From contig JBAXLX010000001.1 of assembly GCA_037134595.1 (NCBI GenBank), forward strand, positions 1-49,905: a stretch of DNA of 49,905 bases. Direction: 5' to 3'. This DNA comes from Pseudomonadota bacterium (GTDB taxonomy: Bacteria > Pseudomonadota > Alphaproteobacteria > Rhodobacterales > Rhodobacteraceae). Positions 1 to 31,260 of this stretch are shown here, piece by piece. The notes below the pieces were generated by a model. It made no database searches, was not told where the DNA came from, and saw nothing but the letters and a program-made list of their open reading frames with translations. A program made the translations under genes and the position numbers. Within the stretch, counting starts at the first letter, position 1, and each line of letters begins with the position of its first letter.

Positions 1-1189
1 CGATCAGCTTGCCGATCAGGCTGTCGTAATAGGGCGGGATCGAATAGCCGCCGTACAGCGCCGAATCCATCCGCACGCCCAAGCCACCGGGCGCGTGAAA
101 GACTTTGACCTTGCCGGGGCGCGGGGCGAAATCGGGCAGGCGTTCGGCGTTGATGCGCACTTCGATGGCGTGGCCGTTGATGTGCAACTCGTCTTGGGTG
201 AACGACAAGGGCAGGCCCGAGGCCACGCGGATTTGTTCGCGCACAAGGTCAACGCCAAAGATCGCCTCGGTGACAGGGTGTTCCACCTGCAAACGGGTGT
301 TCATCTCGATAAAGAAGAATTCGCCGTCTTCATAAAGAAATTCAATCGTGCCTGCGCCGATATAGCTGATCTTCTGCATCGCGTCCGCGCAGACCTTGCC
401 GATCTTGGCCCGCAGCGCGGGGGTGATGGCGGGGCCGGGGGCTTCTTCGAACACCTTCTGGTGGCGGCGTTGCAAAGAGCAATCGCGCTCTCCCAGATGG
501 ACCGCGCCGCCCTTGCCGTCGCCAAACACCTGAATTTCGATATGGCGCGGCTTTTGCAGGTATTTTTCGATATAGACTTCGTCATTGCCAAAGGCAGCTT
601 TGGATTCCGAGCGTGCGGTGCGAAAGGCAATCTCAAGCTCTTCGGGGTTGCGCGCCACTTTCATGCCGCGCCCGCCACCGCCTGCGGTGGCCTTGATGAT
701 CACCGGAAAGCCGATTTTCGCGGCCACGCCAATCGCCGTTTCATAATCCGCCACCCCGCCCTCAGACCCCGGCACCACGGGAATGCCCAAAGCCTTGGCG
801 GTTTCCTTGGCGGTGATCTTGTCGCCCATGATGCGGATATGTTCGGCATTGGGGCCGATGAAGGTGATGCCGTGGTCCTGCAAGGCCTGCGCAAACGAGG
901 CGTTTTCCGACAAGAACCCGTAGCCCGGATGCACGGCCTGCGCGCCCGTAATCTCGCAAGCGGAAATGATCGCGGCTTTGTTCAGATAGCTTTGGGTCGA
1001 CGAGGCCGGGCCGATACACACCGATTCGTCGGCCATGCGCACATGCATGGCATCGGCATCGGCGGTGGAATGGACGGCCACCGATTTGATGCCCATCTCG
1101 CGGCAGGCACGGATGACCCGCAGGGCAATCTCGCCGCGATTGGCGATCAGGATTTTGTCGAAGATGGGCAGCGCGGGGCTTTGCGTCAA
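1..1189 (-). CDS. accC: Acetyl-CoA carboxylase biotin carboxylase subunit (3' end runs off the window)
   Basis: Minus strand reads ...[26 protein letters not shown]...[10 protein letters not shown]...; likely TTG start at 1189 just after the accB stop. Missing from the ORF track because it has no stop in the window. Confidence 0.95.
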
Positions 1190-16323: not shown

Positions 16324-16674
16324 ATGAAATATGAGTTTAAAATCTTAAGTGCTACTGCACTTTACTTAATCCTATCGACGGTGCCTGTTTACGCCGCTCC
16401 TGGAATTGTGATCGGTTTTTCATACAATTTCGGCACGGAAACACCCAAGTTAGGCGTAACGACCAAAGTGCTGTCTTCTGACGAGCTGGACGACGTGGTT
16501 GCCGCAGCGGGTGTCACGTATTTTTTCGATGACAACAGTATCGGTTGGGATGCTGGGCTGGGCTATACATTTGACGGCGGGGCGGCAACCCTGTCCTATG
16601 ATTTCCGGCATAAATCCCCTCAATTTTCTCTGGGGTTTGGCGACATTCATGCTCCCGAGCGTCACAACATTTAA
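16324..16674 (+). CDS. Exported hypothetical protein, possibly small beta-rich outer-membrane protein
   Basis: Signal-peptide-like N-terminus ending VYA-A; alternating aromatic/Gly beta-strand pattern. Confidence 0.7.
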   Translation: MKYEFKILSATALYLILSTVPVYAAPGIVIGFSYNFGTETPKLGVTTKVLSSDELDDVVAAAGVTYFFDDNSIGWDAGLGYTFDGGAATLSYDFRHKSPQFSLGFGDIHAPERHNI

Positions 16675-16825
16675 AGTTTATGATGACCCCGAGTTTCCAT
16701 CCGATTCATTAGCATAGCGTATGTTTTTCGTCAGGATACCGGAACTTATTTTTGTCAATAAATTCGTTTTACAAAATCGCAGGTGTGCCAAAACAGATGT
16801 TTGAGTAGGGATAATTTGGACCCAT

Positions 16826-19800
16826 ATGAAACATATCAGGATTGATCTGCTCCGATCCATGCAAAATACGACTTGCTCAGATCATCAGGTGGACAGGCGG
16901 GAGTATCGAGTGGCAAAGCAACAAAAAAACTCGTTAATTGCTGCGCCTTCGCTGGTATCGAAGGGGTTGTCGCTATTGAGCGAGGCCAAGCCTGCTGATG
17001 CCTATGCGGCGTTTCGCCTAGGCTTAAACTTAGCGCCAAACGATCCATTCCTTCATACCGCTTTGGCCCGCACCTGCCTTATTTTATCGGCAACCCACTT
17101 GGCGGCCTATCATGCGCAAACCGCACTGGAGCATGAATCCCAAAATTTGGATGCTATAATCCTTTTGGCGGAAGCGGCACGCAGAGAGGGAAATCGGGAT
17201 CTTTGCTTGAAACAAATGGCGAAATTTGCCAATATCCCTGCCGCAAAAAGAATGCACCGTTGGCTTGAATTGAGCCTGACGATTGAAGATGGCGATTTTG
17301 AAAATGCCCTCTGCGACATCGCGGCACTTCTCGAAGAAACCCCCAACGATCCCATGTTTGAAAGCCTATTCGAGAAAGGCTTCGACTTCTTTAAGGTCGT
17401 TGCGGATCAAACCCGGTTTGAGTCTTTTGTCGATGGCCTTGGCCTGTCTTGCGCGCCCAATGTCAGCCCCCCTCAATTCAGCGCAGCAGGACCAGAGCAA
17501 GGGTCGATTGATGTCATCATTCCGGTCTTTAATGCCCTGAATGATCTTCAGGCCTGCTTGAATTCAATACGTCATTGCAAGTCGCCTGCCTTGGGTAAAA
17601 TTATTCTCGTGGACGACTTTTCTGATCCACCCACAGCCAACTGGATGCAGGAACTGGTTGCCAAAGAGCCAAACATCGTCCTTCTGCGCAATCTGGAAAA
17701 TCTGGGATTCACGCGTACCGTGATGAAAGGTTTGGCCTATAGCACGTCGGCGTTTCCTGTGATCTTAAACAGCGACACATGGGTAACTTTGGGGTGGCTT
17801 GACGGATTGTGGCAGGCAATGCAGTGCCAACCCACCACGGCTTTGGTGGGTCCATTATCAGACAACGGCTATCATCAAACAATCATGCCGAAGACAAGCG
17901 TTACATCTGCACCCTTTGCCGGGCCTATTGAAGCGTCTGCCCATGTTGACCGTGCCGCAGCGATGGTTTTACTAAACTCACGAAAGAAATATCCTGTTGT
18001 TCCGCTGCTTTCGGGATTTTGCCTGATGATTCGGCGCGAAGCCTATGATCGCGTTGGGGGTTTTGACGCGGGGGCCTTCCCGGAAGGCTATTGGGAATTG
18101 CAAGATCTGGGTTTCAAACTTATTGATCAAGGCATGAAGCTTGTGATTGCCGATGACGTTTTTGTGCATCATGCCGGCAGCGCCAGTATTTCGAGTGACC
18201 GCAAGAAAAGATTGCACAGCGCGGGCCTTGTTAAGATGTACAAGCGCTATTCGGCGCTTAGGCTTCTTACGGCCGAGCGACTCGCTGCTCATGAACCCGA
18301 AATCGAACACCACAAACGGGGATGGTGGCGGGATGACATGCAATTGAACAAAATGTCACCCAACCGCTTTACCGCCGAAATGGGAGATGAAACCAGGCCT
18401 CGGATGAGCTGCCGTATTCTTTTGCAACCAAAGGGTGATTTCGCTGAGCGCGAGGTTTGCTTATTCGTCGTGCATGCGCCCTACGGAACCGCATCCGAAT
18501 ATACGAAAGCTTATATCCGCGCGGTTCGGGATGCTCATGTTTATGTCATCGTTTGCCTTGTGGTGGAGGAGTTGGACATTCCCGTTGACGCCGCCCTATT
18601 GGCGGCTTCAGATGCCCTGATGATCCGGTTGAACGGCGGCTATGACTTTGCGGTTTGGGCCGATATGTTGGTAACCTGTCCGCAAGTTTGGTCAGCAGAT
18701 CGACTGTATTTTCTGAATGACAGTATTACAGGGCCCTTTGCGCCCTTGGATCCGATTTTTGACAAAATTAGGATGGCGGATGCGGGTTTTTTTGCATTAA
18801 CCGAAGCGGTCTATCCGGACTATCACGCCCAGAGTTTCTTTTTTGGATGGTCGCAAGCCAATCTAAGTGCGCCCGCCCTGCGCGCATTTTGGGAGTCTGT
18901 ACGTGTACACCGAGATAAGGCACTGGTTATCAATCTTTACGAAAAGAGCATTTCACCGCTGAGCACGAATCTGCCTGATCAGACTCAGCAAATCGTTTTT
19001 AACTTAAGGGACTTTTTTGATATGGATGCTAAGTCAGTGGTTGACTTTTCACCAACTCATAAGGGTTGGCAGAAACTAATTGACGGTGGTTTCCCATTTA
19101 TTAAAACAGATGTTATTAGAGATGAAATGCACTCAAGTATTATAACTACAAATTGGAGGGAACACTGTGTGTCTAAAGGAGCTGATATAGACATGTTAAA
19201 CCGTCACGTCGAAATGTCACGTACAAACCGTCTTCAAAGGTTTTCATCTTTGCCGCTTGGTGACGCCAAGGCAGAACCACTTGGGGACGCCAAGGCAGAT
19301 CTCAATGCGAAAGAAGCGCGTCCGAAGCGTTCTGCATCGGTAAAAAGGCGCCGCATTTTTTTCCATATTGGGTTTGGCAAGACCGGATCCTCCACCTTGC
19401 AACGCTTTTTGTCGCGCAACGCTGCACAATTGGAAAGTTTGGGCGTATCCTATCCCCACCCAGAGACGCACGATGGGCTAACTGGATGGATCGGTAATTT
19501 ATTTCCCAACATAATGCAACGCGCGCGACAATTTGGGACCGGCTATCAGCAGCATCAAGATATCGTTGACCAACAGTTTGCGCTGACTGTGGACGCCGCA
19601 TTATCCGAAAGCAAGGCTTCAACGGTCGTGTTCTCGGGTGAGTTTATGGGTTCTTATCTAAATACTCATACATTGAAATATCTCAAGAACCTATCTGAGT
19701 ATCATGACGTTTCCTTAATAGCCTTTGTGAGGGATAGTTATGATCATGCCATGTCAAGTTGGAAGCAAATTGTTAAGGCTAACGTCTATCGCAGTTCCTT

Positions 19801-20485
19801 TGATACATGGGTCAACGCAACTTTGGATACAGAGAAGTTACCTGTCCAGCGTTTACATCTCATTGCAATGTCTGGGATTGATGTTAAAATTTTCAATTAC
19901 GACCACCATAAGAAATCTCTGGCTTCTACGTTTATGCAGATCATCGGGCTTGACCCGGTCTCGCCGGGTATCATTTACGAAGATGACCTGATCGTGAATC
20001 CATCTTTTTCCTATTGGCAGTGCAGATCAATCGTTATGGCGCAGTCCCAGACTGGGGCCACCTATCTTTCAGCAATGCTCCTCAATCAGTTTCACGAATT
20101 GCCGGATTTTCGGAAAGATCCGGTCATCGCGGATATTGATTCGTTGATTTTGAACAGGCTTTCTGTCGAGACAGCCTGGGTGAATGAGCACCTGCCAGAA
20201 TCGGAGCGCCTGCGTGAGACAGCCAGAGATGTCATGTCTTTGGAAGAGCCCGAGTTTTCCGATGCCGATGTGTCACTGCTTATGGCCACGGTCGGCGATT
20301 ACATCAGAGCCGTGAAGATACCGACCACGCTTCCACAGGAACTGCTTACGGCGGGCTTACCTGCAGATTTCAATCCTGAGGAATATTTGGTCCTTAATCC
20401 CGATGTTGCAAAGGCAAAGGTAGGCGCCGCAGAACATTACTTGGATCACGGCCGCCACGAGGGTAGACCTTACCGCGCGAGCTAA
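16826..20485 (+). CDS. Multidomain glycosyltransferase: TPR + GT2 + RgpF-like + sulfotransferase-like + C-terminal motif
   Basis: TPR-like helices; GT2 motifs IDVIIPVFN, VDDFS, NLGF, LNSDT; RgpF-like NGGYDFAVW, LNDSITGP, HAQSFF, FPFIK; HIGFGKTGSSTLQ; C-terminal FNPEEYLVLNPDV..HYLDHGRHEGR. Start could be GTG 16910. Confidence 0.85.
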   Translation: MKHIRIDLLRSMQNTTCSDHQVDRREYRVAKQQKNSLIAAPSLVSKGLSLLSEAKPADAYAAFRLGLNLAPNDPFLHTALARTCLILSATHLAAYHAQTALEHESQNLDAIILLAEAARREGNRDLCLKQMAKFANIPAAKRMHRWLELSLTIEDGDFENALCDIAALLEETPNDPMFESLFEKGFDFFKVVADQTRFESFVDGLGLSCAPNVSPPQFSAAGPEQGSIDVIIPVFNALNDLQACLNSIRHCKSPALGKIILVDDFSDPPTANWMQELVAKEPNIVLLRNLENLGFTRTVMKGLAYSTSAFPVILNSDTWVTLGWLDGLWQAMQCQPTTALVGPLSDNGYHQTIMPKTSVTSAPFAGPIEASAHVDRAAAMVLLNSRKKYPVVPLLSGFCLMIRREAYDRVGGFDAGAFPEGYWELQDLGFKLIDQGMKLVIADDVFVHHAGSASISSDRKKRLHSAGLVKMYKRYSALRLLTAERLAAHEPEIEHHKRGWWRDDMQLNKMSPNRFTAEMGDETRPRMSCRILLQPKGDFAEREVCLFVVHAPYGTASEYTKAYIRAVRDAHVYVIVCLVVEELDIPVDAALLAASDALMIRLNGGYDFAVWADMLVTCPQVWSADRLYFLNDSITGPFAPLDPIFDKIRMADAGFFALTEAVYPDYHAQSFFFGWSQANLSAPALRAFWESVRVHRDKALVINLYEKSISPLSTNLPDQTQQIVFNLRDFFDMDAKSVVDFSPTHKGWQKLIDGGFPFIKTDVIRDEMHSSIITTNWREHCVSKGADIDMLNRHVEMSRTNRLQRFSSLPLGDAKAEPLGDAKADLNAKEARPKRSASVKRRRIFFHIGFGKTGSSTLQRFLSRNAAQLESLGVSYPHPETHDGLTGWIGNLFPNIMQRARQFGTGYQQHQDIVDQQFALTVDAALSESKASTVVFSGEFMGSYLNTHTLKYLKNLSEYHDVSLIAFVRDSYDHAMSSWKQIVKANVYRSSFDTWVNATLDTEKLPVQRLHLIAMSGIDVKIFNYDHHKKSLASTFMQIIGLDPVSPGIIYEDDLIVNPSFSYWQCRSIVMAQSQTGATYLSAMLLNQFHELPDFRKDPVIADIDSLILNRLSVETAWVNEHLPESERLRETARDVMSLEEPEFSDADVSLLMATVGDYIRAVKIPTTLPQELLTAGLPADFNPEEYLVLNPDVAKAKVGAAEHYLDHGRHEGRPYRAS
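19253..19300 (+). repeat. In-frame 24-bp tandem duplication (PLGDAKAE/PLGDAKAD)
   Basis: ccgcttggtgacgccaaggcagaa followed by ccacttggggacgccaaggcagat. Confidence 0.9.
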
Positions 20486-20838
20486 AGCTGAACAAACTCA
20501 TGGTGTCGCACACCAGGTTAAACCATGGAAACGGCGGAAATGGAATTGTTGGGTGCTTTCATGAAGCGTTCCAGTTTAGAATTTAGTGCGGTGTCGGTTC
20601 GAGGTTCTCGTCTTTTATGACTGTTCCATAAAGGGTAATTCTCTGGGCGCACCCTGCGGTAAACCCGACGGAGTTTGCTGCTCTACGACCAAGAGGGTCC
20701 GCATTTGCCTGCGGACTGCAGGACGCCCTTGCAGTCATTGAAGAAATGCGACACACTAGTGCGCGAGGTGTTTAGGACGCCGCCACACTCCGTTGCAGGA
20801 TGTGGTTTGTATTCAGCTCCGAGCGGAAGATAGATGCG

Positions 20839-21927
20839 ATGCAAGATGAATTGACCGATTGCAAAAAGACGAACCGTAAAATATTTCTTCATATTGGAAT
20901 GCACAAAACTGGAAGCACAGCCATCCAATCTGCATTCCATGGATATGATAACGGGCGACTTTTGTATGCGCCGTTAGAGAATGAAAACCACTCTATACCC
21001 TTTTATACGGCCTTCTCTGGTGATCATTTTTCTTATCACATTTGGCAGACGGCGGGTTTAAGCGATTTAGAGATTGCGGCCAAGCAGAGGTTCTATTTAA
21101 AGGAAATTGAACAGATACTGTCTTTGAACAAGGATCGCGATGTTTTCTTTTCTGGTGAAGACATTTCAGTCATCAGCAAATCTGGCGTTGAACAGATCGC
21201 TTCGTTATTCAAAAAAGTAGACAGAGACGTAACGGTGATCGTGTATGTGCGTTCTCCATTATCATATGCCACTAGTGCTCTTCAGGAAATCATAAGACAA
21301 GGCTCCACCAATCCTGTACCTGAACGACCTGATTATCGTTTTAAAATTGAAAAATTTTTGGATGCATTTGGTTGCCAGAATGTTTTGATTAGAGATTTTC
21401 ATGATTTGCAAAACTCGAGTGGTGATGTCGTGCGGGATATTTCTCGATTACTGAACGCTACATCTGTTCAGAGCGTGGGGTTGCTTAATGTGGGCTTTTC
21501 AACCGAAGCGATTAAGGTTGTCTGTAAAATTAACAAGGTGATCCGTGCGATTGGCGAGCCAGGCTGGGCTCGTGAATGTCGAACACGTTGCATCAATCAT
21601 GTTCGGTCTATTCTACCTGGTAAGTTTGAAGTGCCTGCTCATCTGATGTCCGCCTGCATTGATAGCGATGACATCGACTGGCTCCGCTCAGTCTCTGGAA
21701 TCGACTACAGAAGCGATGTTTCGGTAGCTCGAGGTCAAGCAACTGGGAGTTTGGGAGAGTTTCTTAGTGAAATCAATACGTCTACAAAAGATGTGATTGT
21801 GGAAGCGTTATTGGCCAGGGATGAACCGGAAAATCTACCACAGCAAACAGATCCGCTCATCTTGAGATACCTTTTGTCATTTGCAAACTATGATGAAAGG
21901 AAACTCGATCCGAATCGTTATGTTTGA
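20839..21927 (+). CDS. Sulfotransferase-like P-loop protein, C-terminus truncated
   Basis: LHIGMHKTGSTAIQ, FFSGED, VIVYVRSPLSYATS; paralogous to the last catalytic domain of 16826..20485. Confidence 0.75.
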   Translation: MQDELTDCKKTNRKIFLHIGMHKTGSTAIQSAFHGYDNGRLLYAPLENENHSIPFYTAFSGDHFSYHIWQTAGLSDLEIAAKQRFYLKEIEQILSLNKDRDVFFSGEDISVISKSGVEQIASLFKKVDRDVTVIVYVRSPLSYATSALQEIIRQGSTNPVPERPDYRFKIEKFLDAFGCQNVLIRDFHDLQNSSGDVVRDISRLLNATSVQSVGLLNVGFSTEAIKVVCKINKVIRAIGEPGWARECRTRCINHVRSILPGKFEVPAHLMSACIDSDDIDWLRSVSGIDYRSDVSVARGQATGSLGEFLSEINTSTKDVIVEALLARDEPENLPQQTDPLILRYLLSFANYDERKLDPNRYV

Positions 21928-21931
21928 GTGG

Positions 21932-22071
21932 GAGTGGTGGCTTGGGAAAGCTAAACAGCTTGGATAAGTGGATTTTCTGATCAACAGCGGCTTGGTGCCT
22001 TAAGCGATCGGAAGATCATGACAAAACGACCGCGCCCGAACGATAGTGTGGCAATTAAAACAAAAGTGGCA
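21932..22071 (+). mobile_element. IS3-family left-end remnant
   Basis: AGTGGTGG...AACAGCTTGGATAAGTGGATTTTC leader, then ATG 22018 MTKRPRPNDSVAIKTKVA, resembling the IS3 OrfA start M-x-K-R-P-R-R-N-H-S-x-x-F-K-A-K-V-A (from recall). Confidence 0.55.
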
Positions 22072-22134
22072 GGTGCGGCGCAACATTATTTGGAACATGG
22101 TCGGCGTGAGGGGCTTCCCTACCGCGCGGGGTAA
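22072..22134 (+). pseudogene. Detached C-terminal tail of the 20839 gene
   Basis: Encodes GAAQHYLEHGRREGLPYRAG*, compared with GAAEHYLDHGRHEGRPYRAS* at the end of the 1219-aa protein. Confidence 0.75.
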
Positions 22135-22967
22135 GGCTGTTGCGACATATTTGGAGAACTGGGCAATCCGGACATGCGATGTTGCTAAGACAGGGCGTCA
22201 GTGACTCTGCTATCAGCGCGGGAGTGTCGAGCTCCGGGGCAGATCAACTGTTTGAGGGGCTGTTGAACCACACCGGTCAGCTATTTCGAGATTTTTTGCG
22301 GGTTTGCGAAGATGGTTATGGCCTGAGTGTTGAAAGCCTAAAGTCAGCAGCCGGTGTGCCGTTGGCAACTTTGGGGTGGTTTTCAAATAAGCGTGCCTCG
22401 GCCAACACGCGCAACCGCCCTCTTTAAGGGATCGCAGATGCGCAGGTTGCCGCCCTAACAAGGTGTGCGGAACGTGATCGTGGGGGGGCGCCAGCGAAGG
22501 GTTAGGCCAAAGCCGTCGGGCGACCCTTATCGCGGCCAGACGAGAGGGAGCCGGTCGCGCCGCAGCTTTTGGTCATTGACTGCCAAGTTTGGGAAGGGCC
22601 TCGGCGTTCGTCAAAGCGGGTATCGTCGCTTATAAGGGGCCGCGCGGGTTGGAGGATGGGCGCCGCAGGCACCGTTCAGCGTGCCTGACGTGAAGGCCGC
22701 CGCATCGTGCGAGACGAGGTGGGTGATACGAAGATTGGGCATGGCCGCACCCGAACCGATGCAGAGTATCGCGTGACATCTGCGCGTTTGGTCAGTCCAT
22801 GTGCAAGTTTGTGCTCTGTCGCCCATAGTGGGTGCAGGAACCGCCAAAAGGCTATTTTTAAATCTTCGTTCGTCGTTTGTGGCAAAAGATGATGCTGGCG
22901 TGAAGGGCGCGTTTTGCGTAAAGCCCAAGTCACCGGCATCTGCGGTAGTATTTTGGGCAAATGGCAG

Positions 22968-23426
22968 TTAAAACAACAGCTTATACGTATTACCCAAAGT
23001 ATCCGTCACAGTCCCCGTGCCGCTTTCCGTGCCCGAGCCAGTGATAAACCGCCCCTGCACCCGTGCCCCGTCGGTGCAGACGGCATAAATCTCGCCGGAA
23101 TTCACGCCGCCGACATCGGTGACCGATTTGTTCAACTTTCCACCCGTGCTTTGCAGCGTCAGCGACAGGCCGCGTTCTTTTTCGATGACGCGGGGGGCGA
23201 CAGAGGTCCAGGTGCCGTTGCAGCGGTTCTTTTTACCCGGGCCGGGCAGAACAAAGCTGATATCGGCCGAGGCTGTCGTTTGATTGCTGACCTTGACAGC
23301 GATGATTTGCGAAGGATTGCTTTGCTTGATCGGCCCGTCAATCGGGTAAAGGCGCAGGTTGACGCTGGGGCCGCCACAGGCGGTCAGCGTGGCCAAAAGG
23401 CCAGCAGCTAAAACATTGCGTTTCAC
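22968..23426 (-). CDS. Lipoprotein, copy A (outside the element)
   Basis: AAGGAGG RBS, GTG start, MKRNVLAAGLLATLTA-C lipobox. Confidence 0.85.
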   Translation of the reverse strand: MKRNVLAAGLLATLTACGGPSVNLRLYPIDGPIKQSNPSQIIAVKVSNQTTASADISFVLPGPGKKNRCNGTWTSVAPRVIEKERGLSLTLQSTGGKLNKSVTDVGGVNSGEIYAVCTDGARVQGRFITGSGTESGTGTVTDTLGNTYKLLF

Positions 23427-23494
23427 AGGTTCGGCCTCCTTGGCCACAGGTTGGGCCAAAGGCCAGCGGCTGACAGGTTTCGCGTGAAGCTCTC

Positions 23495-23518
23495 GGCAGT
23501 TGGCTGGGGCGCTAGGAT
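23495..23518 (-). other. att core copy (3' end of tRNA-Gln plus 6 nt)
   Basis: GGCAGTTGGCTGGGGCGCTAGGAT is identical to 31070..31093; similarity stops abruptly at 23519, inside the T-loop. Confidence 0.92.
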
Positions 23519-23569
23519 ACCATGAAAGGGGAAGAAAGGACGAGGAAAAGCTGGTGTGGTTGAAGAAGG

Positions 23570-23589
23570 TGGGGCAGCGGCTGGGGCAG
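23570..23589 (+). repeat. Putative integrase arm-type sites, left (TGGGGCAG x2, 12-bp period)
   Basis: Copies at 23570 and 23582; the same pair recurs at 30516 and 30528. Confidence 0.7.
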
Positions 23590-23859
23590 TTAAGGCAAAC
23601 GACGGTATTTCACGTCACGGTCATTTCCAAGCAGGCCGATGGGCTCGCACAGAGGGGCCTCACAATCTTGCACGGCCAAGGAGAACGGGTCACCGAGTTT
23701 TCGTCTTGTGTTTCCATCGACCATTTCGACCCGAGCCTGATCCCGAAGTTCGCACAACGATAAAACTTGATTTGCAGGAAAGTAAGCCAACCTAGCGAAA
23801 AGCTCAATTTGGAGTCTATCGTTTATTGCTTTGGATACCTAAGTTGGTCGAGACACTTC

Positions 23860-24240
23860 CTAAGTGTTTTGACGAGCACAATCGTCGCTTGCGGAAACCA
23901 CTCGCTTAACCCAAGGCACCGTTAGAGCGGAATAATACTTGAAAATCTGAAAGCTACCATCTGTATTTATGTCCGCGCTAACTAGGTCGTATGAGCCTGC
24001 GGTCATGTTAACTCGCTTGCCTGTGCGGGTTTCCTCACGTCGAACTTGAAACTCACCCAGGCGATTGTCGAAGAATGCAAAATATACACATTGCTCCATT
24101 TCGCTAAGGTTTTTGGGCGAAAATGAATTTGTGCCAAGTTCAGTGTAGAACGATTGGTTGACCCTTGAAGGTGCAGCAAATGCGCACGCCGAAAGCAACG
24201 TAACCGTCATTAAGTGTGACAGATATTTCTTCTTGGTCAT
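23860..24240 (-). CDS. Putative lipoprotein
   Basis: MTKKKYLSHLMTVTLLSA-C lipobox; GAGG upstream. Confidence 0.75.
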   Translation of the reverse strand: MTKKKYLSHLMTVTLLSACAFAAPSRVNQSFYTELGTNSFSPKNLSEMEQCVYFAFFDNRLGEFQVRREETRTGKRVNMTAGSYDLVSADINTDGSFQIFKYYSALTVPWVKRVVSASDDCARQNT

Positions 24241-24358
24241 GGGGTACCCTCAGCTCGTTTGCATTCAGGTATTTGTCGATCATTTCTGTTTTCGTAGCAA
24301 TCAAAAAAACTGAGCAACTTCCTGTATCTAAATAAAGAAACAGAAACAGGAGCTTAAG

Positions 24359-24517
24359 ATGAAACTGCTATCCGCCCTCGGCCTTTTGGCCGGGGGTTTT
24401 GTTTTGGTGCCCAAGGGTCTTTGGGTGTTCGTGGCCTTGTGGGGTTTGGCGAAGGTACAGCCCTTGGCAATGGTCACGCTGCTTGGGGTGTGGCTGCTGG
24501 TGGAGCGGTGGCTATGA
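24359..24517 (+). CDS. 52-aa hydrophobic membrane peptide (below the ORF-track cutoff)
   Basis: CAGGAG RBS; MKLLSALGLLAGGFVLVPKGLWVFVALWGLAKVQPLAMVTLLGVWLLVERWL; ATGA-coupled to the next ORF. Confidence 0.65.
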   Translation: MKLLSALGLLAGGFVLVPKGLWVFVALWGLAKVQPLAMVTLLGVWLLVERWL

Positions 24518-24711
24518 AGCCTGGGCCCGTTAGACCTGGGGATGTGGTCACTATACGAGCCTTCGACGATGTGCCGGAACATCAGTTCCTGGTGGACGAG
24601 GTGTTCGAAGACTTCGTTACAGGCTTTGCGGTGACAGGTGACTTGGCAGGAGAATATGGAGAGCCTGCGCTAGTCATGGTTCTCAAGAATCCCTCTAAGC
24701 CAAAGAAGTAA
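24514..24711 (+). CDS. 65-aa hypothetical protein
   Basis: ATGA overlap with the upstream stop; MKPGPVRPGDVVTIRAFDDVPEHQFLVDEV... Confidence 0.65.
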   Translation: MKPGPVRPGDVVTIRAFDDVPEHQFLVDEVFEDFVTGFAVTGDLAGEYGEPALVMVLKNPSKPKK

Positions 24712-24766
24712 ATCAGAAAAATGAGAAACAACACAGCAATGGGGCCTTTGCCCCAAAGGAGGACTC

Positions 24767-25984
24767 ATGTCTCTTAGGATACAATATGCTTACCTCAAGC
24801 AGCAGACTTGGTTGTATCGGCGCAACTACCCGGTTGAAATGCAAGCGGTGCTAGGGGCTGCGTTGAAGCAGTCTTTGAAGACGGGTGACGCCAAGGTGGC
24901 CAAGGTTCGCGCTGCCGAGGTGAACGCAAAGTATGAAGAGATCGTATCAAAGGCGCGAGACGGGGTGGTGCTGGGTCGGCCAGAACCGATCCGCGTGTCG
25001 CCCAAGGTCTTCGCCCCGGTCGTCGTCATAGGGCGGTTGCCTGTGGCTAAGCTGGCCAAAGACTATCTGGCAAAGCGGGCGAAAGACCTGCAGCCGGGTG
25101 GGTACAAGAGCGTGCGGTTCAGTGTGGGGCTGTTCGCTTCGGCCTACGGTGACAGGCAGGTGGCGCAGGTGACCCGAGAAGACGCTGCCAGCTTCGTTCG
25201 GCGGTTGGGTGACCTGTCAAGGGATGTGGGCAAGTCTTATCGGGCAAAGGGGCTAGGGCTGGATCAGCTGGTGAAGATCAGTGCTGGTCAGAAGATCTTG
25301 CCCCAGACCCAGCGCCGGATCGTCACTCAGGTGGGCCACTTTCTCGACTGGGTGGTCTATCAGGGTGAACTGGCAGCCAATCCGTTCAGCACAGTGCGGG
25401 TCGAAGGCAAGGCCAAGGTGCACAGCTATGTGGCCCCGACGGACGAAGAGGTGCGCAGGCTGGTGGGGTTAGCTGATGCAGTCATTGGCGATGTGTTGAA
25501 GGTCTGCCTCTTGTCAGGAATGCGGTCGGGGGAAGCGGTTGGCCTGGTGCGGGAAGATCTGGTCTGGAAGGGCAACTTGGGATGGTTTGCTTGGGTGCGC
25601 CCTAACGCGGTTCGCAGCTTAAAGACCGATGCAGCCGAACGGTTGGTTCCCTTGCACTCTGCCCTGACAGCGGTGCTTGGGCGACGGCCAGAGGGGGAAA
25701 GGTTGTTTCCCGAACTAGATGTGTCGGTGGTGACCAAACGCTTTGCTAAGCTGAAGGGTCAGGTTGGGGTTGATCGTCCTGGCTTTGTGTTTCACTCGAC
25801 GCGAAAGTGGTTCGTGACGCAGTGCGAGCGTGCTGGGGTGCCGGAGCATTGGACCGCTTCAATCGTCGGCCACCAGTCTGCTAGGTCAGAGAACCGGATG
25901 ACCTATGGCATCTATTCGGCTGGTATCAGCGACGAACAGAAACGCGAGATCGTAGAGAAGGTGGGCCTGCCTTGGCACCCCTGA
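24767..25984 (+). CDS. Tyrosine recombinase/integrase with DUF6538-like N-terminal domain
   Basis: WLYRRNYP..LKQSLKTGD N-terminus; catalytic SGMRSGE (R), LKT (K), FHSTR (HxxR), VGH (H), MTYGIY (Y); AGGAGG RBS. Confidence 0.95.
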   Translation: MSLRIQYAYLKQQTWLYRRNYPVEMQAVLGAALKQSLKTGDAKVAKVRAAEVNAKYEEIVSKARDGVVLGRPEPIRVSPKVFAPVVVIGRLPVAKLAKDYLAKRAKDLQPGGYKSVRFSVGLFASAYGDRQVAQVTREDAASFVRRLGDLSRDVGKSYRAKGLGLDQLVKISAGQKILPQTQRRIVTQVGHFLDWVVYQGELAANPFSTVRVEGKAKVHSYVAPTDEEVRRLVGLADAVIGDVLKVCLLSGMRSGEAVGLVREDLVWKGNLGWFAWVRPNAVRSLKTDAAERLVPLHSALTAVLGRRPEGERLFPELDVSVVTKRFAKLKGQVGVDRPGFVFHSTRKWFVTQCERAGVPEHWTASIVGHQSARSENRMTYGIYSAGISDEQKREIVEKVGLPWHP

Positions 25985-26157
25985 CACCCGTTCCAGACAT
26001 CGACGCGTTCGAGGAGAGGGCCGCTATCAGGCAGTATGATGGGGGTGTCACTCGTGCTAGGGCCGAAGACGAGGCTGCAAGGGCGCAGGGCTTCCGGGAT
26101 GCTGCCCACTATCGTCAGGTGCTGGCAGACTATGTGGTTTCGGGTAGACTGACGTAA
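25972..26157 (+). CDS. Small mobile-element protein (FEERAAIxxYDGG motif)
   Basis: Overlaps the integrase stop; I recognise the motif from small phage/island proteins, function unknown. Confidence 0.65.
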   Translation: MAPLTPVPDIDAFEERAAIRQYDGGVTRARAEDEAARAQGFRDAAHYRQVLADYVVSGRLT

Positions 26158-26162
26158 GAACA

Positions 26163-26190
26163 ACCCTCGGCGGCTTCGGCTGCCGGGGGT
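26163..26190 (+). repeat. C(UUCG)G hairpin, copy 1
   Basis: ACCCTCGGCGGC-TTCG-GCTGCCGGGGGT; 26/27 identical to 27313..27339. Confidence 0.85.
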
Positions 26191-26254
26191 GCAATAAGCC
26201 TAACGAGAACTTTGCCTTGCGTGATCCATACACAAGAAAGAATGCCAAATGAAA

Positions 26255-26734
26255 ATGGAAGTTGTGTCTAAATATGCCAACCTGCTGCTTGCAGTGCTTT
26301 TTCCGGCTGCCTAGTTTGCTCCGCTTATCAGAACTGGTTTGTTTCGGCCACCTCCATTGCCCTGGCCATTCGATTGGGATCTTTTTAGCCTGAAAGGCGT
26401 TTCTGTCGTATCAGGGCTTCAGGCTCTTTGGGAAAAAGATGTGTTTTTGGCAATCGCAGTCACGTTTTTTGCCCTTGTTGCTCCTTTGCTGAAATGCTTG
26501 GGGCTCGCATTGATTGACTTTGGACTTCTGGACAAGCGAGTGAAGCCCGTCATTGGGGTATTGGGGAAGCTTGCAATGGCCGATATCTTCATCCTTGCGA
26601 TGTGTGTCATTGTAGCAAAGGGTATAGGCATAGGCGAGATAGAGGTGGCTTGGGGCCTGTATCTTTTCACCGGCTGCGTCATAGCTTCGTTGCTTCTTTC
26701 CATAAGGGAGCCTGGCTTGAACTATGCTAAGTAA
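26255..26734 (+). pseudogene. PqiA (paraquat-inducible protein A)-family membrane protein with premature TAG
   Basis: MEVVSKYANLLLAVLFPAA*FAPL...APLLK...LGKLAMADIF; in-frame TAG at 26312 where Trp (TGG) is expected. Confidence 0.7.
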
Positions 26735-27305
26735 GCTCAGGAATATAATAGTTATTTTGGCATTAGTGATATCCTTGTGCCTCAATATAGCGATTGTGAC
26801 GGTGCAGTCCGTTGCGACTGGTGTATCGGCGATGGTGAGCGCCGTTGCGGGGGCGTCGGCTGTGCTACCTGAACTACGGTCAGTGATTTATAAAGGTGAA
26901 CGGAAGACGGTTGCCGAGGTGGTCAAAAGCACAACGAAGCGCATTGCACGCCGCACGGCGTTTGATGCAACAAGAAATGTTTCATCTACCTTCGGGGAAG
27001 CCGTTCCAGCAATTGGGATCGGTGTGATCGCTGGGGTAAGTGCTTGGGAGTTGAAGGATTCATGCGATACGATGCGCGATTTGCATGAACTCGACGTCGC
27101 GTTGGATCCCTCTATGGCTAACGATGCAGCGGCTACCGAAGTATGCGGCCTTAAAGTTCCCACGAAGGAGGAAATCTGGGCGAAAGTAAAAGCTAGTCCC
27201 GGTGAGGCATGGGAGATGGCTAAGGCCATGGTCCCAGACTTACCAGATATGCCCGCCCTGTCCTTGCCTGAAATGCCTGAGATCGACTGGAAGTTCTGGG
27301 ATTGA
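26724..27305 (+). CDS. Hypothetical membrane-anchored protein
   Basis: N-terminal hydrophobic helix, GGGAG RBS, Pro-rich tail; overlaps the pqiA-like stop. Confidence 0.8.
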   Translation: MLSKLRNIIVILALVISLCLNIAIVTVQSVATGVSAMVSAVAGASAVLPELRSVIYKGERKTVAEVVKSTTKRIARRTAFDATRNVSSTFGEAVPAIGIGVIAGVSAWELKDSCDTMRDLHELDVALDPSMANDAAATEVCGLKVPTKEEIWAKVKASPGEAWEMAKAMVPDLPDMPALSLPEMPEIDWKFWD

Positions 27306-27312
27306 CCATTAG

Positions 27313-27339
27313 ACCCTCGGTGGCTTCGGCTGCCGGGGG
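27313..27339 (+). repeat. C(UUCG)G hairpin, copy 2
   Basis: ACCCTCGGTGGC-TTCG-GCTGCCGGGGG directly after the 27305 stop. Confidence 0.85.
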
Positions 27340-27481
27340 AGCCTGACTTTCCTTTTTTTATCGTTTTCCACGAAAACATGGCAGTCAGGGCCTTTCTTTC
27401 CTGGCGAGTTTTATGAGGTTTCCGGCCACGTGCATGCAACCTTTAGGATTTTTTGGTCAACTTTAAGGTGACGATCTTGAT

Positions 27482-27598
27482 TTTGGCGTGACTTTACTGT
27501 ATTTCACGGCTGTCGAGGCGATGAGAGGGGGATTGAGAAGACGACTTTGGCGATTGAGCGGCCTACGGCTCTGGAAAAATTTTTGGCGTAATTTGGCG
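27482..27598 (+). repeat. Four TTTGGCG direct repeats in an intergenic region
   Basis: Copies at 27482, 27546, 27582 and 27592. Confidence 0.6.
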
Positions 27599-27653
27599 TT
27601 ACCTTTCATGATCCAATTTCAGGGTCTCTAGGTCGCTGTTAACAAGGAAGTTC

Positions 27654-28127
27654 ATGATGGCTATTCACGTTACCGAGACGCAGAAACTGATACTGAAATC
27701 TGGCTATTTGGCCGCCTCTGAGCGGGGCGAAGACCTTGACCAACAAACCTGCGAAGAAATTGTCAGAGCAATGCTTTTGATTGAGCGTTCTGGCATGCAG
27801 CCCTACTTCCTGAAGGGCTACAATTGGTCGTGTCGGTCAAGAGCTCACGGCAATCATCGGCAAATTGAAGAAGAGTCCGAGGAGTTGGAAGCTCGAGTTG
27901 AGGAGTTCAATTTCCGGATAGCCACGTCGCAAGGACATGCCGCATCAAGGATCAGGTCCAATCGCGTGCGGAGCATCAAGGCTATCGAGGGGCACGATAA
28001 TCAAGTGCTTGTTGCTGAGGCTAGATTTGGTGAATACTGGCAAGTGGCATTAAGACGGGCTGACTTTTTGAGGTTTGGCCAAGCTAACGACGTTGATCGG
28101 CCAGATCCGCAAGTCAATGCCGCCTGA
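27654..28127 (+). CDS. Hypothetical protein
   Basis: 157-aa ORF with AAGGAAG RBS, followed by a hairpin. Confidence 0.7.
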   Translation: MMAIHVTETQKLILKSGYLAASERGEDLDQQTCEEIVRAMLLIERSGMQPYFLKGYNWSCRSRAHGNHRQIEEESEELEARVEEFNFRIATSQGHAASRIRSNRVRSIKAIEGHDNQVLVAEARFGEYWQVALRRADFLRFGQANDVDRPDPQVNAA

Positions 28128-28135
28128 TTGACACT

Positions 28136-28159
28136 GGAAGGGGGCTTCGGCCCCCTCCC
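28136..28159 (+). terminator. C(UUCG)G hairpin upstream of the polymerase-like gene
   Basis: GGAAGGGGGC-TTCG-GCCCCCTCC. Confidence 0.6.
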
Positions 28160-28183
28160 TTATCCTTTGATCAGGTATAAGTA

Positions 28184-29704
28184 ATGGAAGAAGAAGAACA
28201 ATTTGAGATACTGAAGGAGGCTATTGCTGTTCCTCCTCCCCCCATAGAAGATCCTTGGTACTCTAGGCCTATAGACGTTCATCGCTGGTCGGATCATCCC
28301 GAACTCGCGGGGTTAGCAGAGAGGTTATGGGTAGCCTACTGTTTCGATATGGAACGAAAGGCATCTTCGCCTGGACCACGACCTAAGACCAGCTTCCGGC
28401 ATCAGTTCAGGGTCCTCCTTCTGGACCTGTATGTTGCTTGGTTAGAAGATCCCCGGTTGTGTATCGGGGTGGCCATGTCAGTGAACTATTGGGATACCAC
28501 TAGCCGCTATAATGCCCTGAATATTTCAAAGCAGATCATTCCTATCGTGAAACGTCTGACCGATGTGGGGCTACTTGACCTCGCGAGGGGCAGTTATGCG
28601 GGACCCACGGCGATAACCAACAGAACAACGAGAATAAGGGGGTCAAAGGCCTTGCGTGACATGTTTCAATCGTTGACTGCCACACGGGATGACGTGAAAC
28701 GGATTGAGTCTGAGGAGTGCATTATCCTGCGTGAAGGGCTGGTCGTGGGCGATGGAACAAAGATCTATGACTACAAGGACACTGATGAAACCAATCGCAT
28801 GAGAGACGAACTCAGAGCCTACAACAAGGTTTTGGTTGATGCTTTCATCGATATACCGAGCCTAGATGAACCCGTCGTGCAAAGGACGGATCAGTTTGGA
28901 AAGGTGTTCATACAGCCCCTAGATCATCACCATCACTTTGTCAGACGGGTGTTTAGCCGTGGCTCTTGGCAGATGAATGGGCGGTTCTATGGGGCTTGGT
29001 GGCAATTGATCCCCAGTGACCTGAGGAGAGGCATCTACATCAACGATACGCCGACAGTTGAGGTGGACTTCAAGGGACTGCATGTGTCTTTGTTGAGTGC
29101 TGAACAGGGTGTAGCAATGGAAGGTGACCCGTACACCTTGGACGGGCTGGTTATTCCAGGAGTGCCCGCTGCCCTTCAGCGATCATTGGTTAAGCAGCTT
29201 GTCTTGACAGCCCTGAACGCGAAGGACCGTAAGTCTGCGTTTCAGAGTTTCCGAGACGGGTGGCCTGCTAATCATTATGGAAAAGGGATGCTCAACGAAG
29301 AACTGTCAGTGCTTCTTGATGCTTTCACTGGGCAACACCCTCACCTGAAAGAGCTTGTGTGTGCTGATCAGGGCATCCGGTTGATGAACGTGGACAGTCG
29401 AATAGCGGAGAGGGTGCATTATCATTTCACACGTCAAGACGTCCCGGTGCTGTCGGTTCATGATAGCTTCTTCATCGACTACACCCGCGTTGGGGAACTG
29501 AAGCAGGTCATGGCGGAAGCTTCTACTGCCGTGGTGGGGCGGCCGATGGCTGTGTCTGCTTCAGGTCTGGGTGTTGATGAGGTTGAGCCTGATTTCCGGT
29601 TGGATTTCGTGGGCTGGGCTCAGCTTCCTCGTTCCCCTGCTTATCTTCGTAGGATGTCGGCTTGGGAGGCTAGGTTAGGTTGGGAGGTTATTCCATATAG
29701 ATAG
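28184..29704 (+). CDS. Compact superfamily-A polymerase-like protein (PolA / T7-RNAP / TV-Pol-like palm) with probable N-terminal winged helix
   Basis: NGRFYG (~266), motif A VEVDFKGLH (D295), motif B RSLVKQLVLT (R333/K337), motif C LSVHDSF (D427). Confidence 0.75.
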   Translation: MEEEEQFEILKEAIAVPPPPIEDPWYSRPIDVHRWSDHPELAGLAERLWVAYCFDMERKASSPGPRPKTSFRHQFRVLLLDLYVAWLEDPRLCIGVAMSVNYWDTTSRYNALNISKQIIPIVKRLTDVGLLDLARGSYAGPTAITNRTTRIRGSKALRDMFQSLTATRDDVKRIESEECIILREGLVVGDGTKIYDYKDTDETNRMRDELRAYNKVLVDAFIDIPSLDEPVVQRTDQFGKVFIQPLDHHHHFVRRVFSRGSWQMNGRFYGAWWQLIPSDLRRGIYINDTPTVEVDFKGLHVSLLSAEQGVAMEGDPYTLDGLVIPGVPAALQRSLVKQLVLTALNAKDRKSAFQSFRDGWPANHYGKGMLNEELSVLLDAFTGQHPHLKELVCADQGIRLMNVDSRIAERVHYHFTRQDVPVLSVHDSFFIDYTRVGELKQVMAEASTAVVGRPMAVSASGLGVDEVEPDFRLDFVGWAQLPRSPAYLRRMSAWEARLGWEVIPYR

Positions 29705-29810
29705 AGAAGGGGGGGAGGGAGGAGGAGAAGCTATGTATTACCAGTCCCCTACATTTCCTTCTTCTTCCATTACTTATACCTAATCCCTACTCAGCAAATA
29801 AGATGGGCTG

Positions 29811-30431
29811 TCATGCAGGAGAAGGAATTACAGAAACGTCTTCCAAAGAAGGAACAGCATCTTTCGTGAGAACATAGTATGCAAAGGCACCAACGATTAG
29901 AATTGCTATCAAACCGGTTGTGAGGGCTGCTGTCACCCCGATTGGTATCCCACCTATGATCAGTACCTCGCCTGCAGACACTGCGTTAGATAAGGCTATG
30001 GATTTGATTATTGTCATTCCAGCAATCTTGCCTGTGGTGACTTGACCTACCCAACTCCCAGCCCCGGCAGCAGCTGCCAAGAGTGGGCCACTCACAGAAG
30101 TAACTGCTGACGATCCGAAAACAACAAACGATCCAACTTGTACCATGGTGTAGGACACTGCCGTCGTCGCACCAAATGTGCCAGCGATGAAAGCCCCTGC
30201 CGCTGCGCCCGAAACCATTGCAATCTTGGTAGCGATTGCAGCGGCCCCAGCAGTTACAATGGTCGAACCTGCTAGTGCCCCCGCCGCAACACTAGCACCT
30301 GCACCCAAAGTGGCAGCGCCAGCAATCTTGGCAGCAGCTATAGCGTCTCGGTAATCAACAACCCCGTCGCCGTTAATGTCCAGAACACTGGATGCAGTCG
30401 ATGCGGCTTTTTTGATCTGTTTGAGTGTCAT
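29811..30431 (-). CDS. Membrane protein with EF-hand/dockerin-like loop and Gly/Ala-rich hydrophobic helices
   Basis: DINGDGVVDYRD followed by ~150 mostly hydrophobic residues; AGAGGA RBS. Confidence 0.75.
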   Translation of the reverse strand: MTLKQIKKAASTASSVLDINGDGVVDYRDAIAAAKIAGAATLGAGASVAAGALAGSTIVTAGAAAIATKIAMVSGAAAGAFIAGTFGATTAVSYTMVQVGSFVVFGSSAVTSVSGPLLAAAAGAGSWVGQVTTGKIAGMTIIKSIALSNAVSAGEVLIIGGIPIGVTAALTTGLIAILIVGAFAYYVLTKDAVPSLEDVSVIPSPA

Positions 30432-30515
30432 GATGCGATCCTCTGAACGAGTTACTCATCGAACACCAATTTTTGTCAAAGTGCTAGGGAAATCCGATCC
30501 ACGACACCCGCACCT

Positions 30516-30535
30516 TGGGGCAGTCGTTGGGGCAG
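30516..30535 (+). repeat. Putative integrase arm-type sites, right (TGGGGCAG x2, 12-bp period)
   Basis: Copies at 30516 and 30528, same spacing and orientation as the left pair. Confidence 0.7.
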
Positions 30536-30542
30536 TTTGCCG

Positions 30543-31001
30543 TCAGAACAACAATTTATAGGTGTTTCCCAAACTATCCGTCACAGTTCCCGTGCCGCTT
30601 TCCGTGCCGGACCCTGTGATAAACTGCCCCTGCACCCGCGTGCCATCGCGGCAGACGGCGTAAATCTCACCGTTGTTCACACCGCCCACATCGGTGACCG
30701 ATTTGTTCAACTTTCCACCCGTGCTTTGCAGCGTCAGCGACAGGCCGCGTTCTTTTTCGATGACGCGGGGGGCGACAGAGGTCCAGGTGCCGTTGCAGCG
30801 GTTCTTTTTACCCGGGCCGGGCAGAACAAAGCTGATATCGGCCGAGGCTGTCGTTTGATTGCTGACCTTGACAGCGATGATTTGCGAAGGATTGCTTTGC
30901 TTGATCGGCCCGTCAATCGGGTAAAGGCGCAGGTTGACGCTGGGGCCGCCACAGGCGGTCAGCGTGGCCAAAAGGCCAGCAGCTAAAACATTGCGTTTCA
31001 C
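30543..31001 (-). CDS. Lipoprotein, copy B (inside the element)
   Basis: Same RBS, GTG and lipobox as copy A; differs by about five residues, all in the C-terminal third. Confidence 0.85.
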   Translation of the reverse strand: MKRNVLAAGLLATLTACGGPSVNLRLYPIDGPIKQSNPSQIIAVKVSNQTTASADISFVLPGPGKKNRCNGTWTSVAPRVIEKERGLSLTLQSTGGKLNKSVTDVGGVNNGEIYAVCRDGTRVQGQFITGSGTESGTGTVTDSLGNTYKLLF

Positions 31002-31075
31002 AGGTTCGGCCTCCTTGGCCACAGGTTGGGCCAAAGGCCAGCGCCTGACAGGTTTCGCGTGCATCTTAGGGCAGT

Positions 31076-31150
31076 TGGCTGGGGCGCTAGGATTCGAACC
31101 TAGGTATGTCGGTACCAAAAACCGATGCCTTACCGCTTGGCGACGCCCCA
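31076..31150 (-). tRNA. tRNA-Gln (anticodon TTG)
   Basis: TGGGGCGTCGCCAAGCGGTAAGGCATCGGT-TTTTGGT-ACCGACATACCTAGGTTCGAATCCTAGCGCCCCAGCCA; cloverleaf with encoded CCA. Confidence 0.97.
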
Positions 31151-31260
31151 ACTGCGGCGGTGTTTAGCGAAGCGCTTGCGGGCCTGCAAGAGGGTTCTGG
31201 CGGAAAATGTCATAAAGCATCGGGCGTTGATTGCGCGGGCTTTGCGGTCTAAGGGGGGCT

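Follow-up and report, generated by a model that had tools for sequence, protein, structure and literature searches.

What a minimal polymerase does inside a small integrative island is the question raised by the 49,905-nucleotide stretch of a Rhodobacteraceae genome analyzed here (hereafter the window). The gene in question encodes a 506-residue protein with a superfamily-A core and lies in a 7,595-bp island (23500-31094) at tRNA-Gln(TTG). We found that a short, directional cis site stands on both sides of this gene, pointing inward, and that variants of it accompany relatives of the polymerase in other genomes. The best explanation, which we hold tentatively and with slightly less than even confidence, is that the enzyme is a sequence-specific, primer-independent polymerase that makes short purine-rich RNA at the site and thereby primes replication of the excised element.

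28184..29704, + strand: minimal superfamily-A polymerase gene (506 aa; phrog_4756 family)

The original prediction, made from the sequence alone, had read four motifs of a stand-alone superfamily-A polymerase in this open reading frame (ORF), and their positions agree with ours: N265-G266-R267-F-Y-G, V292-E293-V-D295-F-K-G-L-H300, R333-xxx-K337-xxx-L341-xxx-N345, and V425-H426-D427-S428-F429. The motifs resembling RNA polymerase (RNAP) that it had named, GRxY and HDS, are present. Residue conservation was counted over 117 diverse relatives: R267, D295, K337, and S428 are each found in 117/117, R333 and N345 in 116/117, D427 in 116/117 with Glu as the single exception, H300 and H426 in 112/117, and D315 in 110/117. 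The expected conservation of the catalytic D295 and D427 is thus borne out, and the gene is intact in 56 of the 59 loci having both flanks. The polymerase is a real and probably active enzyme.

An AlphaFold model built from 67 close relatives (predicted local distance difference test, pLDDT, 89.8; predicted template modeling score, pTM, 0.87) contains no exonuclease domain, in agreement with the predicted stand-alone polymerase. Residues ~175‒463 match family-A polymerases in Foldseek (best E 2.4e-6, PolA structures first); a strand ends at D295, and D427 lies within a palm-like strand-turn-strand. The VIA structural search gave Z scores of 12.1 for apicoplast PolA and 10.0 for T7 DNA polymerase, and of 8.9, 8.8, and 6.9 for yeast mitochondrial RNAP, T7 RNAP, and N4 mini-vRNAP. 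Residues ~44‒167 resemble winged-helix proteins with Z of about 5‒6; since these values are middling, the winged helix that had been proposed for the N-terminal part is likely rather than proven. A single-sequence model of this domain reached pLDDT 40 and was not used. The fingers region (~311‒395) gave helix-turn-helix-type structural matches, and a single long helix (201‒218) stands ahead of the hairpin, where a two-helix thumb is expected.

By sequence, the protein matches phrog_4756 (E 2.4e-45), a family of unknown function. No match was found in Pfam, NCBIfam, or PADLOC, nor among PDB sequences by single sequence, profile, or core fragment, and the ESM Atlas matches are solely unnamed clusters of its own family. 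Searches at 887‒2530 aa and 1232‒3515 aa returned no longer fused form, which is weak evidence. The family comprises 6001 clusters at 50% identity, and both divPolA2 (PMC11348598, excerpt; here and below, this word marks a source of which part of the text was available) and an integrase-linked TV-Pol subset (PMC2579912) have already been described, so the suggestion of an undescribed system is not supported at the protein level. Homologues P0147, P0153, P0155, P0162-P0166, P0171, P0175, and P0187 carry an extra Pfam-negative N-terminal extension of 100‒200 aa.

The active site departs from that of DNA polymerases, whose Glu, Tyr, and HDE are replaced in this family by His, Asn, and HDS. The PolA-like motif A of the original prediction needs correction in this respect, His being in place of the steric-gate Glu. 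N345 presumably occupies, by motif spacing, the position that is Tyr in both DNA polymerases and T7 RNAP. In 48 distant homologues, His is kept in 44, Asn in 46, and the Ser of HDS in 46; the paralogue AUR84708 (L339:2338-3630) has Glu/Tyr/Glu at all three positions. The roles of the steric-gate and O-helix positions have been treated elsewhere (PMC11617373, PMC10201439, excerpts). Because His300, Asn345, and HDS stand in for Glu, Tyr, and HDE, these three linked differences suggest that the sugar preference also differs, with ribonucleotides as the simplest reading. AUR84708, the published divPolA2 model protein, is itself atypical with its DNA-polymerase-like Glu/Tyr/DE, nearly all other members having His/Asn/DS, and it forms with the rest of the family a natural pair for comparing sugar choice.

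The new and testable part of the locus, absent from the original prediction, is the pair of inward-facing cis sites, which lie in the arms of a 28-bp inverted repeat around the polymerase gene:

28169..28196, + strand: left cis site, core AGGTATAAGTAATGG at 28173-28187; left arm of the inverted repeat
29758..29785, - strand: right cis site, core at 29781-29767; ~77 bp beyond the stop codon

AGGTATAAGTAATGG matches the window twice, compared with 0.02 matches expected, and the 3.77-Mb genome has no further exact match. The polymerase ORF starts with the ATG of the left site, here as in four relatives, and the site encodes the N-terminal ~13 residues, which are unstructured in the model. The right site runs antisense into the polymerase gene and is followed by a purine-rich tract.

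A position weight matrix (PWM) of the site was built from GTDB loci, with 1.17 Mb of reversed sequence as the control. It gave 93 real matches, 82 of them gene-facing, and 3 matches in the control. Within ~600 bp of the gene in the training loci, sites face it in 32/67 upstream flanks and face away in 1/67, and the downstream counts are 25/72 and 0/72. Metagenome loci outside the training set gave 11/68 against 0/68 upstream and 12/70 against 0/70 downstream. The invariant part of the site, RGTAATG, is gene-facing in 119 of 161 loci and away-facing in 17; after clustering of the genes at 90%, it points toward the gene in 104/143 and away in 16/143, and in clusters without a training member, in 52/66 and 6/66. 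The ten bases 5' of RGTAATG vary by polymerase clade (for example AATAGGTATA, CATAGGGATA, ATTAGGTACT, and AACTCTTCCT). About 25 bases 3' of the site are purine-rich, with a fraction of 0.78 at +10..14 and 0.57‒0.66 at +15..34, compared with ~0.5 upstream, and no structured RNA is apparent there (mean folding z -0.3; 60/137 sites). When site classes were compared with the protein, 7 of the top 10 separating columns fell within residues 24‒164; since the classes follow clades, this covariation is only a hint. A stretch of 10 nt in the core, TATAAGTAAT, is also present in the oligonucleotide of the yeast 14S rRNA promoter in PMC4558008 (excerpt).

A literature search, with subscription papers and bioRxiv supplements outside it, found no cis site for this polymerase family. 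The main text of the 2008 TV-Pol paper (PMC2579912) describes none, and a search with motif strings gave no relevant paper among those listed. The cis site, the flip-type arms described below, and the active-site signature are the added value of this analysis and are unreported in the literature found.

The distribution of the site was followed from the motif side as well. Among 300 genomes of the host family, the exact pattern occurs in 14, compared with 2 in the reversed control. Seven of the 14 have the polymerase gene or a piece of it (E<=1e-10), against 27 of the 300 overall (p=5e-5, with kin that are not independent); the remaining genomes comprise two with 5' fragments, three with the site beside tRNA-Gln but without the gene, and two unexplained. 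A close integrase is found in 17 of the 300 genomes, and both genes in 10. The site is missing from 6/6 examined islands that have the same integrase without the polymerase (seven such genomes were found), and variants of it also stand beside relatives near other tRNAs (L062, L074, L076). The site goes with the polymerase gene, not with the integrase. As for position, 25 of the 93 sites are found <400 nt beyond the stop codon and point back into the gene in antisense, where there is nothing to express; 28 precede neither a sense ORF nor a gene end, and back-to-back pairs occur in L014, L018, L027, and L030. Two PWM matches, in L153 and L157, are inside a coding frame, and none of 57 pattern-first viral matches has a polymerase within 3 kb.

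The partners of the polymerase are few. In 27 delimited elements, the only widely recurring genes are the polymerase (27/27) and the integrase family (20/27). As the original prediction had noted, no helicase was found among the scanned ORFs of the island. Scanning 82 cargo or representative ORFs of related elements gave one UvrD-type fragment and no match to a primase, relaxase, or D5.

Three other identities of the site were tried and rejected. A host sigma-70 promoter does not fit, as the island has no consensus promoter and the conserved block has variants that break TATAA. A phage sigma promoter of the form GTAAtg-N16-aCTA was set aside on inspection, as the conserved bases precede GTAATG and a second block does not stand out. 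An integrase arm site should be present in the same-integrase islands lacking the polymerase, where the site is absent.

The RNA-priming explanation starts from observed features, namely the fold, the conserved active site, the linkage to an integrase, the inward-facing site pair, and the association of the site with the polymerase and not with the integrase. In the proposed cycle, the integrase would excise the element as a circle, after which the winged helix would read the clade-variable 5' half of the site while the invariant RGTAATG is melted. Synthesis from ribonucleotides would begin within or just after GTAATG, and the purine-rich RNA would remain hybridized and be extended by host DNA polymerases. 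With one site per strand, copying of each strand could proceed continuously with no helicase from the element. In the clade of the window, where the ATG of the left site doubles as the start codon, the same start could also yield a near-leaderless polymerase mRNA. We favor RNA priming because an arrangement of one site on each strand, with an integrase as sole partner and neither a helicase nor a primase, suits a replication start better than a regulon; a replication start is also preferred over an RNAP because the model is without the T7 specificity loop and the large N-terminal domain. The geometry of the 25 antisense sites among the 93, together with the back-to-back pairs, fits origins.

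Several observations weigh against this explanation. DNA polymerases outrank RNA polymerases in the structural searches of the model. H300, which we take to be at the position of the steric-gate Glu of DNA polymerases and of Gly542 of T7 RNAP, is placed by motif spacing from D295 rather than by superposition, and the His there is bulky, unlike the Gly of T7 RNAP. The tight pair is not the rule, because both flanking sites lie within ~600 bp in 12/59 and 1/60 loci having both flanks, and for 40 of the 93 sites a sense ORF of at least 150 aa begins no more than 400 nt away, as would be equally fitting for a promoter. The clade-wise 5' half may reflect co-evolution with the protein or only co-inheritance, and the yeast resemblance, which lies in the clade-variable part of the site, may be due to chance. 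The site is absent around 48 distant homologues of the viral collection (1 toward, 13 away). Contig depth over the element shows no rise in two DNA runs; four runs, as assembled contigs only, show neither amplification nor a circle junction; and 72,556 plasmid records contain no small replicon with the gene, the 5 matches being in records of 128 kb to 2.2 Mb. From the literature, Leu at B3 is found in SPO2-like DNA polymerases too (PMC10201439, excerpt), the RNA-priming model for the yeast ori is disputed (PMC8555793, excerpt), and divPolA2 occurs in barbaviruses and related lytic phages with their own PolB (PMC11348598, excerpt), whereas the present gene belongs to a bacterial tRNA-integrated island.

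The polymerase could instead be a miniature single-subunit RNAP for gene expression, with the site as its promoter; the upstream copy would drive its own mRNA and the cargo, and the downstream copy would make a limiting antisense RNA. We consider this possible but rather unlikely. The GRxY, RxxxK, and HDS motifs and the loss of the Glu/Tyr gate are in its favor, as are the purine-rich start and the bipartite site, whose variable 5' half and invariant 3' half are like those of T7-family promoters. In the window and in four relatives, the polymerase ORF begins at the site ATG, and this start codon together with the yeast 14S match keeps the RNAP reading alive. Phage homologues alongside PolB have also been suggested to be RNAPs (PMC11348598, excerpt). 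The nearest cargo ORF runs in the site direction in 7/10 elements with cargo between the gene and the far site, but this is not beyond chance, and the 25 antisense sites and the 28 without an ORF would have nothing to express. Only helices lie between motifs B and C of the model, which speaks against a T7-type specificity loop, and the model has no large N-terminal domain for an RNA exit channel. Phage 2L372X and the surroundings of other viral homologues (25 viral loci) gave no repeated promoter-like motif, and two sites per genome leave an orthogonal RNAP little to transcribe.

Less probable still, in our view, is a primase-polymerase that starts DNA de novo at the two sites and extends it as the whole replicase, as predicted for TV-Pol; piPolB is thought to act in this way as the whole replicase of pipolins. 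DNA PolAs are indeed the best structural matches, and CCPol with MP, the biochemically studied TV-Pol, makes DNA primers (PMC7581432, excerpt), but CCPol is a truncated Pol I relative of another family. The element layout mirrors that of pipolins (PMC5695915, excerpt), one site per strand suits strand displacement, and a related contig, L239, has a 55-nt end overlap as in a free circle. However, the Glu/Tyr/HDE signature is lost family-wide and retained by one paralogue, no proofreading domain is present, and the model has one long helix instead of the two-helix thumb. Nor is there a conserved partner like a single-stranded DNA-binding protein (SSB); the 157-aa ORF upstream of the gene (27654-28127) has no homologue in the 80 related loci. 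The site could also be only an operator or a recombination accessory, serving autoregulation or integration and inversion, while the polymerase core fills gaps or repairs DNA without a fixed start, a role close to the repair suggested for divPolA2 (PMC11348598, excerpt). In 14 of 32 tRNA-Gln(TTG) loci, the sites do lie 133‒314 bp inside inverted attachment (att) arms, and five motif-positive genomes have no polymerase piece at the site, three of them beside tRNA-Gln. We nevertheless judge this improbable: the nearest att core of the window is 1.3 kb from a site, the L074 and L076 sites are far from tRNA copies, the polymerase-less same-integrase islands have no site, and strict direction and a purine-rich downstream tract would be unexpected of an operator.

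A broader proposal, which we regard as doubtful, about as much so as the gene-expression RNAP, is that the family consists of ~500-aa promoter-specific single-subunit RNAPs, not much over half as large as T7 RNAP, reading a 17-bp site via the winged helix. The clade variants would then be natural orthogonal pairs, and the gene with its inward sites would be a self-transcribing, self-priming unit, flippable between inverted att arms in many elements. Since 2008, stand-alone TV-Pol and divPolA2 proteins have been predicted by computation, and the biochemistry in the literature found is limited to that of the distant CCPol-MP. This family of thousands of clusters gains a specific assay template in a site that is defined, directional, and clade-variable. 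If RNA is made at the site, this would bear on the origin of T7-like and mitochondrial RNAPs from family-A polymerases, would explain the copying of helicase-free islands of 6‒13 kb with defense and metabolic cargo, and could yield a very compact set of orthogonal polymerases and promoters.

How is the segment between the sites arranged in related elements? The 14 of 32 tRNA-Gln(TTG) loci mentioned above (L008, L009, L011, L012, L017, L022, L023, L025, L030, L037, L041, L043, L044, and L075) have an additional inner att core in inverted orientation, and each site there lies inside an arm, in long near-identical inverted repeats. The orientation of the polymerase segment relative to the integrase is opposite in L012 and L017, and in L075 and L045. 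Because both orientations occur between related elements, the polymerase segment can likely flip; the element of the window has no inner att. Many short isolate contigs that hold the gene alone probably break at the inverted repeats. The metagenome contig L239, of 6,063 bp, carries a distant homologue and is possibly a free circle, as its 55-nt end overlap is exact. L239:1-6063 also holds a 503-aa Pfam-negative ORF and a ubiquitin-family ORF, and the cargo of L068 includes a ubiquitin-autotransporter fusion.

The island itself has a GC content of 52.9%, compared with 59.8% for the genome, and has at its two ends an 18-bp repeat duplicated from the 3' end of tRNA-Gln(TTG) (23501-23518 and 31076-31093). 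The polymerase is a core gene of this 7.6-kb island, as the assignment to an integrative element had implied. Its other features are as follows:

31076..31150, - strand: tRNA-Gln(TTG), integration site; att core in its 3' end (31076-31093)
23501..23518, - strand: second att core, repeating the tRNA 3' end in direct orientation; far element boundary
24767..25984, + strand: tyrosine integrase (DUF6538 + Phage_integrase), second core gene
24421..24711, + strand: small ORF upstream of the integrase, in 8/80 related loci; function unknown
26339..28127, + strand: variable cargo region (PqiA-like ORF 26339-26734, 193-aa ORF 26724-27305, 157-aa ORF 27654-28127)
28137..28160, + strand: GC-rich UUCG hairpin just 5' of the left site; no evident conservation before other sites
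29811..31151, - strand: cargo (206-aa hydrophobic ORF 29811-30431 and lipoprotein-like ORF region)

Close relatives use tRNA-Gln(TTG) in 32/81 loci, and related elements or site pairs are in tandem at one tRNA-Gln locus in L011, L014, and L015. The ORF at 24421-24711 has no Pfam or PHROG match and is a candidate excisionase or regulator. The hairpin before the left site is one of three like GC-rich UUCG hairpins between cargo genes (26163-26192, 27313-27342, 28137-28160). A related strain carries the same island with one cargo block exchanged, that between the first two hairpins, so the hairpins may mark cassette boundaries. A contig from a single RNA run (27527-28123; weak) spans the 157-aa ORF and ends shortly 5' of the hairpin that precedes the left site. 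Contigs of the RNA run contain no long piece of the polymerase gene, an outcome that speaks neither for nor against its expression. The lipoprotein-like ORF region has a second copy at 22925-23518 (595 bp, 92%). Beyond the far att lies a second low-GC region (16000-23500) with a 1219-aa glycosyltransferase/RgpF protein and a 375-aa sulfotransferase-like ORF; it is preceded by this copy of tRNA-adjacent DNA and probably represents an older island at the same integration site. Cargo differs among related elements, with CBASS, DRT9, restriction enzymes, and metabolic genes represented; examples are a DRT9 reverse transcriptase (L012:7422-8738), a CBASS cyclase with E1-E2 (L021:14318-17304), type IIG restriction-modification (L019:7190-9937), and Mrr (L014:5071-6069).

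Among known systems, TV-Pol was predicted to be a primase plus DNA polymerase, and a helicase-free, integrase-linked subset was described (PMC2579912). By description, the polymerase is a candidate member of this subset, and the earlier naming of TV-Pol as the closest described group stands. Shared are a minimal superfamily-A core without nuclease domains, an extra N-terminal domain, an integrase neighbor, the hairpin Arg (R267), the two catalytic Asp residues (D295, D427), the fingers Asp (D315), and RxxxK. The TV-Pol species list includes a Rhodobacterales bacterium and Paracoccus denitrificans, and the host lineages overlap those of L070 and L079. The TV-Pol thumb has two antiparallel helices, whereas one long helix precedes the hairpin here, and the N-terminal domain of the integrase-linked subset is all-helical, whereas ours is alpha/beta and winged-helix-like in the model. 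The D5-like helicase, fused or adjacent in one TV-Pol subset, was not found here, although for the integrase-linked subset PMC2579912 sets no such requirement. The Ma-LMM01 member gave no match with two profiles.

For divPolA2, the authors suggested a repair polymerase or an RNA polymerase (PMC11348598, excerpt). A tblastn match (H33 = AUR84708, E 5e-6, 25% over residues 261‒455), the lack of an exonuclease, and an extra N-terminal domain connect it with the present protein, and a viral fold search placed Barba and Aeromonas phage models on top (E to 5e-22). AUR84708 has Glu/Tyr/DE against His/Asn/DS here, and the site is absent near the viral homologues. T7-like and mitochondrial RNAPs share the fold (Z 8.5‒8.9), GRxY, RxxxK, HDS, and a short directional bipartite site. 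T7 RNAP has 883 aa, compared with 506 aa here, and its Gly542 and Tyr639 correspond by spacing to His (112/117) and Asn (116/117). In the model, its specificity loop and large N-terminal domain are replaced by helices only (residues 348‒420) and a winged-helix-like N-terminal domain of ~125 aa. The PolA hallmarks (Glu, Tyr, HDE, and a 3'-5' exonuclease domain) contrast with His, Asn, HDS, and no exonuclease.

Two mobile-element systems come close in organization. CCPol-MP and the PolA-SSB primases of SCCmec are family A, belong to an integrative element, and start de novo at a preferred site, CCPol with MP making DNA primers at a preferred origin site (PMC7581432, bioRxiv 2022.12.02.518924, excerpts); CCPol, however, is a truncated relative of Pol I and depends on an OB-fold partner and a helicase; the present elements conserve neither. 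Pipolins are tRNA-integrated and combine a tyrosine integrase with one stand-alone polymerase, no primase, and variable cargo including defense genes (PMC5695915, PMC11551731, excerpts), and relatives of our element likewise carry the defense systems CBASS, DRT9, restriction-modification, and Mrr. The polymerase of pipolins is a primer-independent family-B enzyme for which multiple origins are proposed, whereas the present elements have a family-A polymerase without proofreading and a fixed, conserved site.

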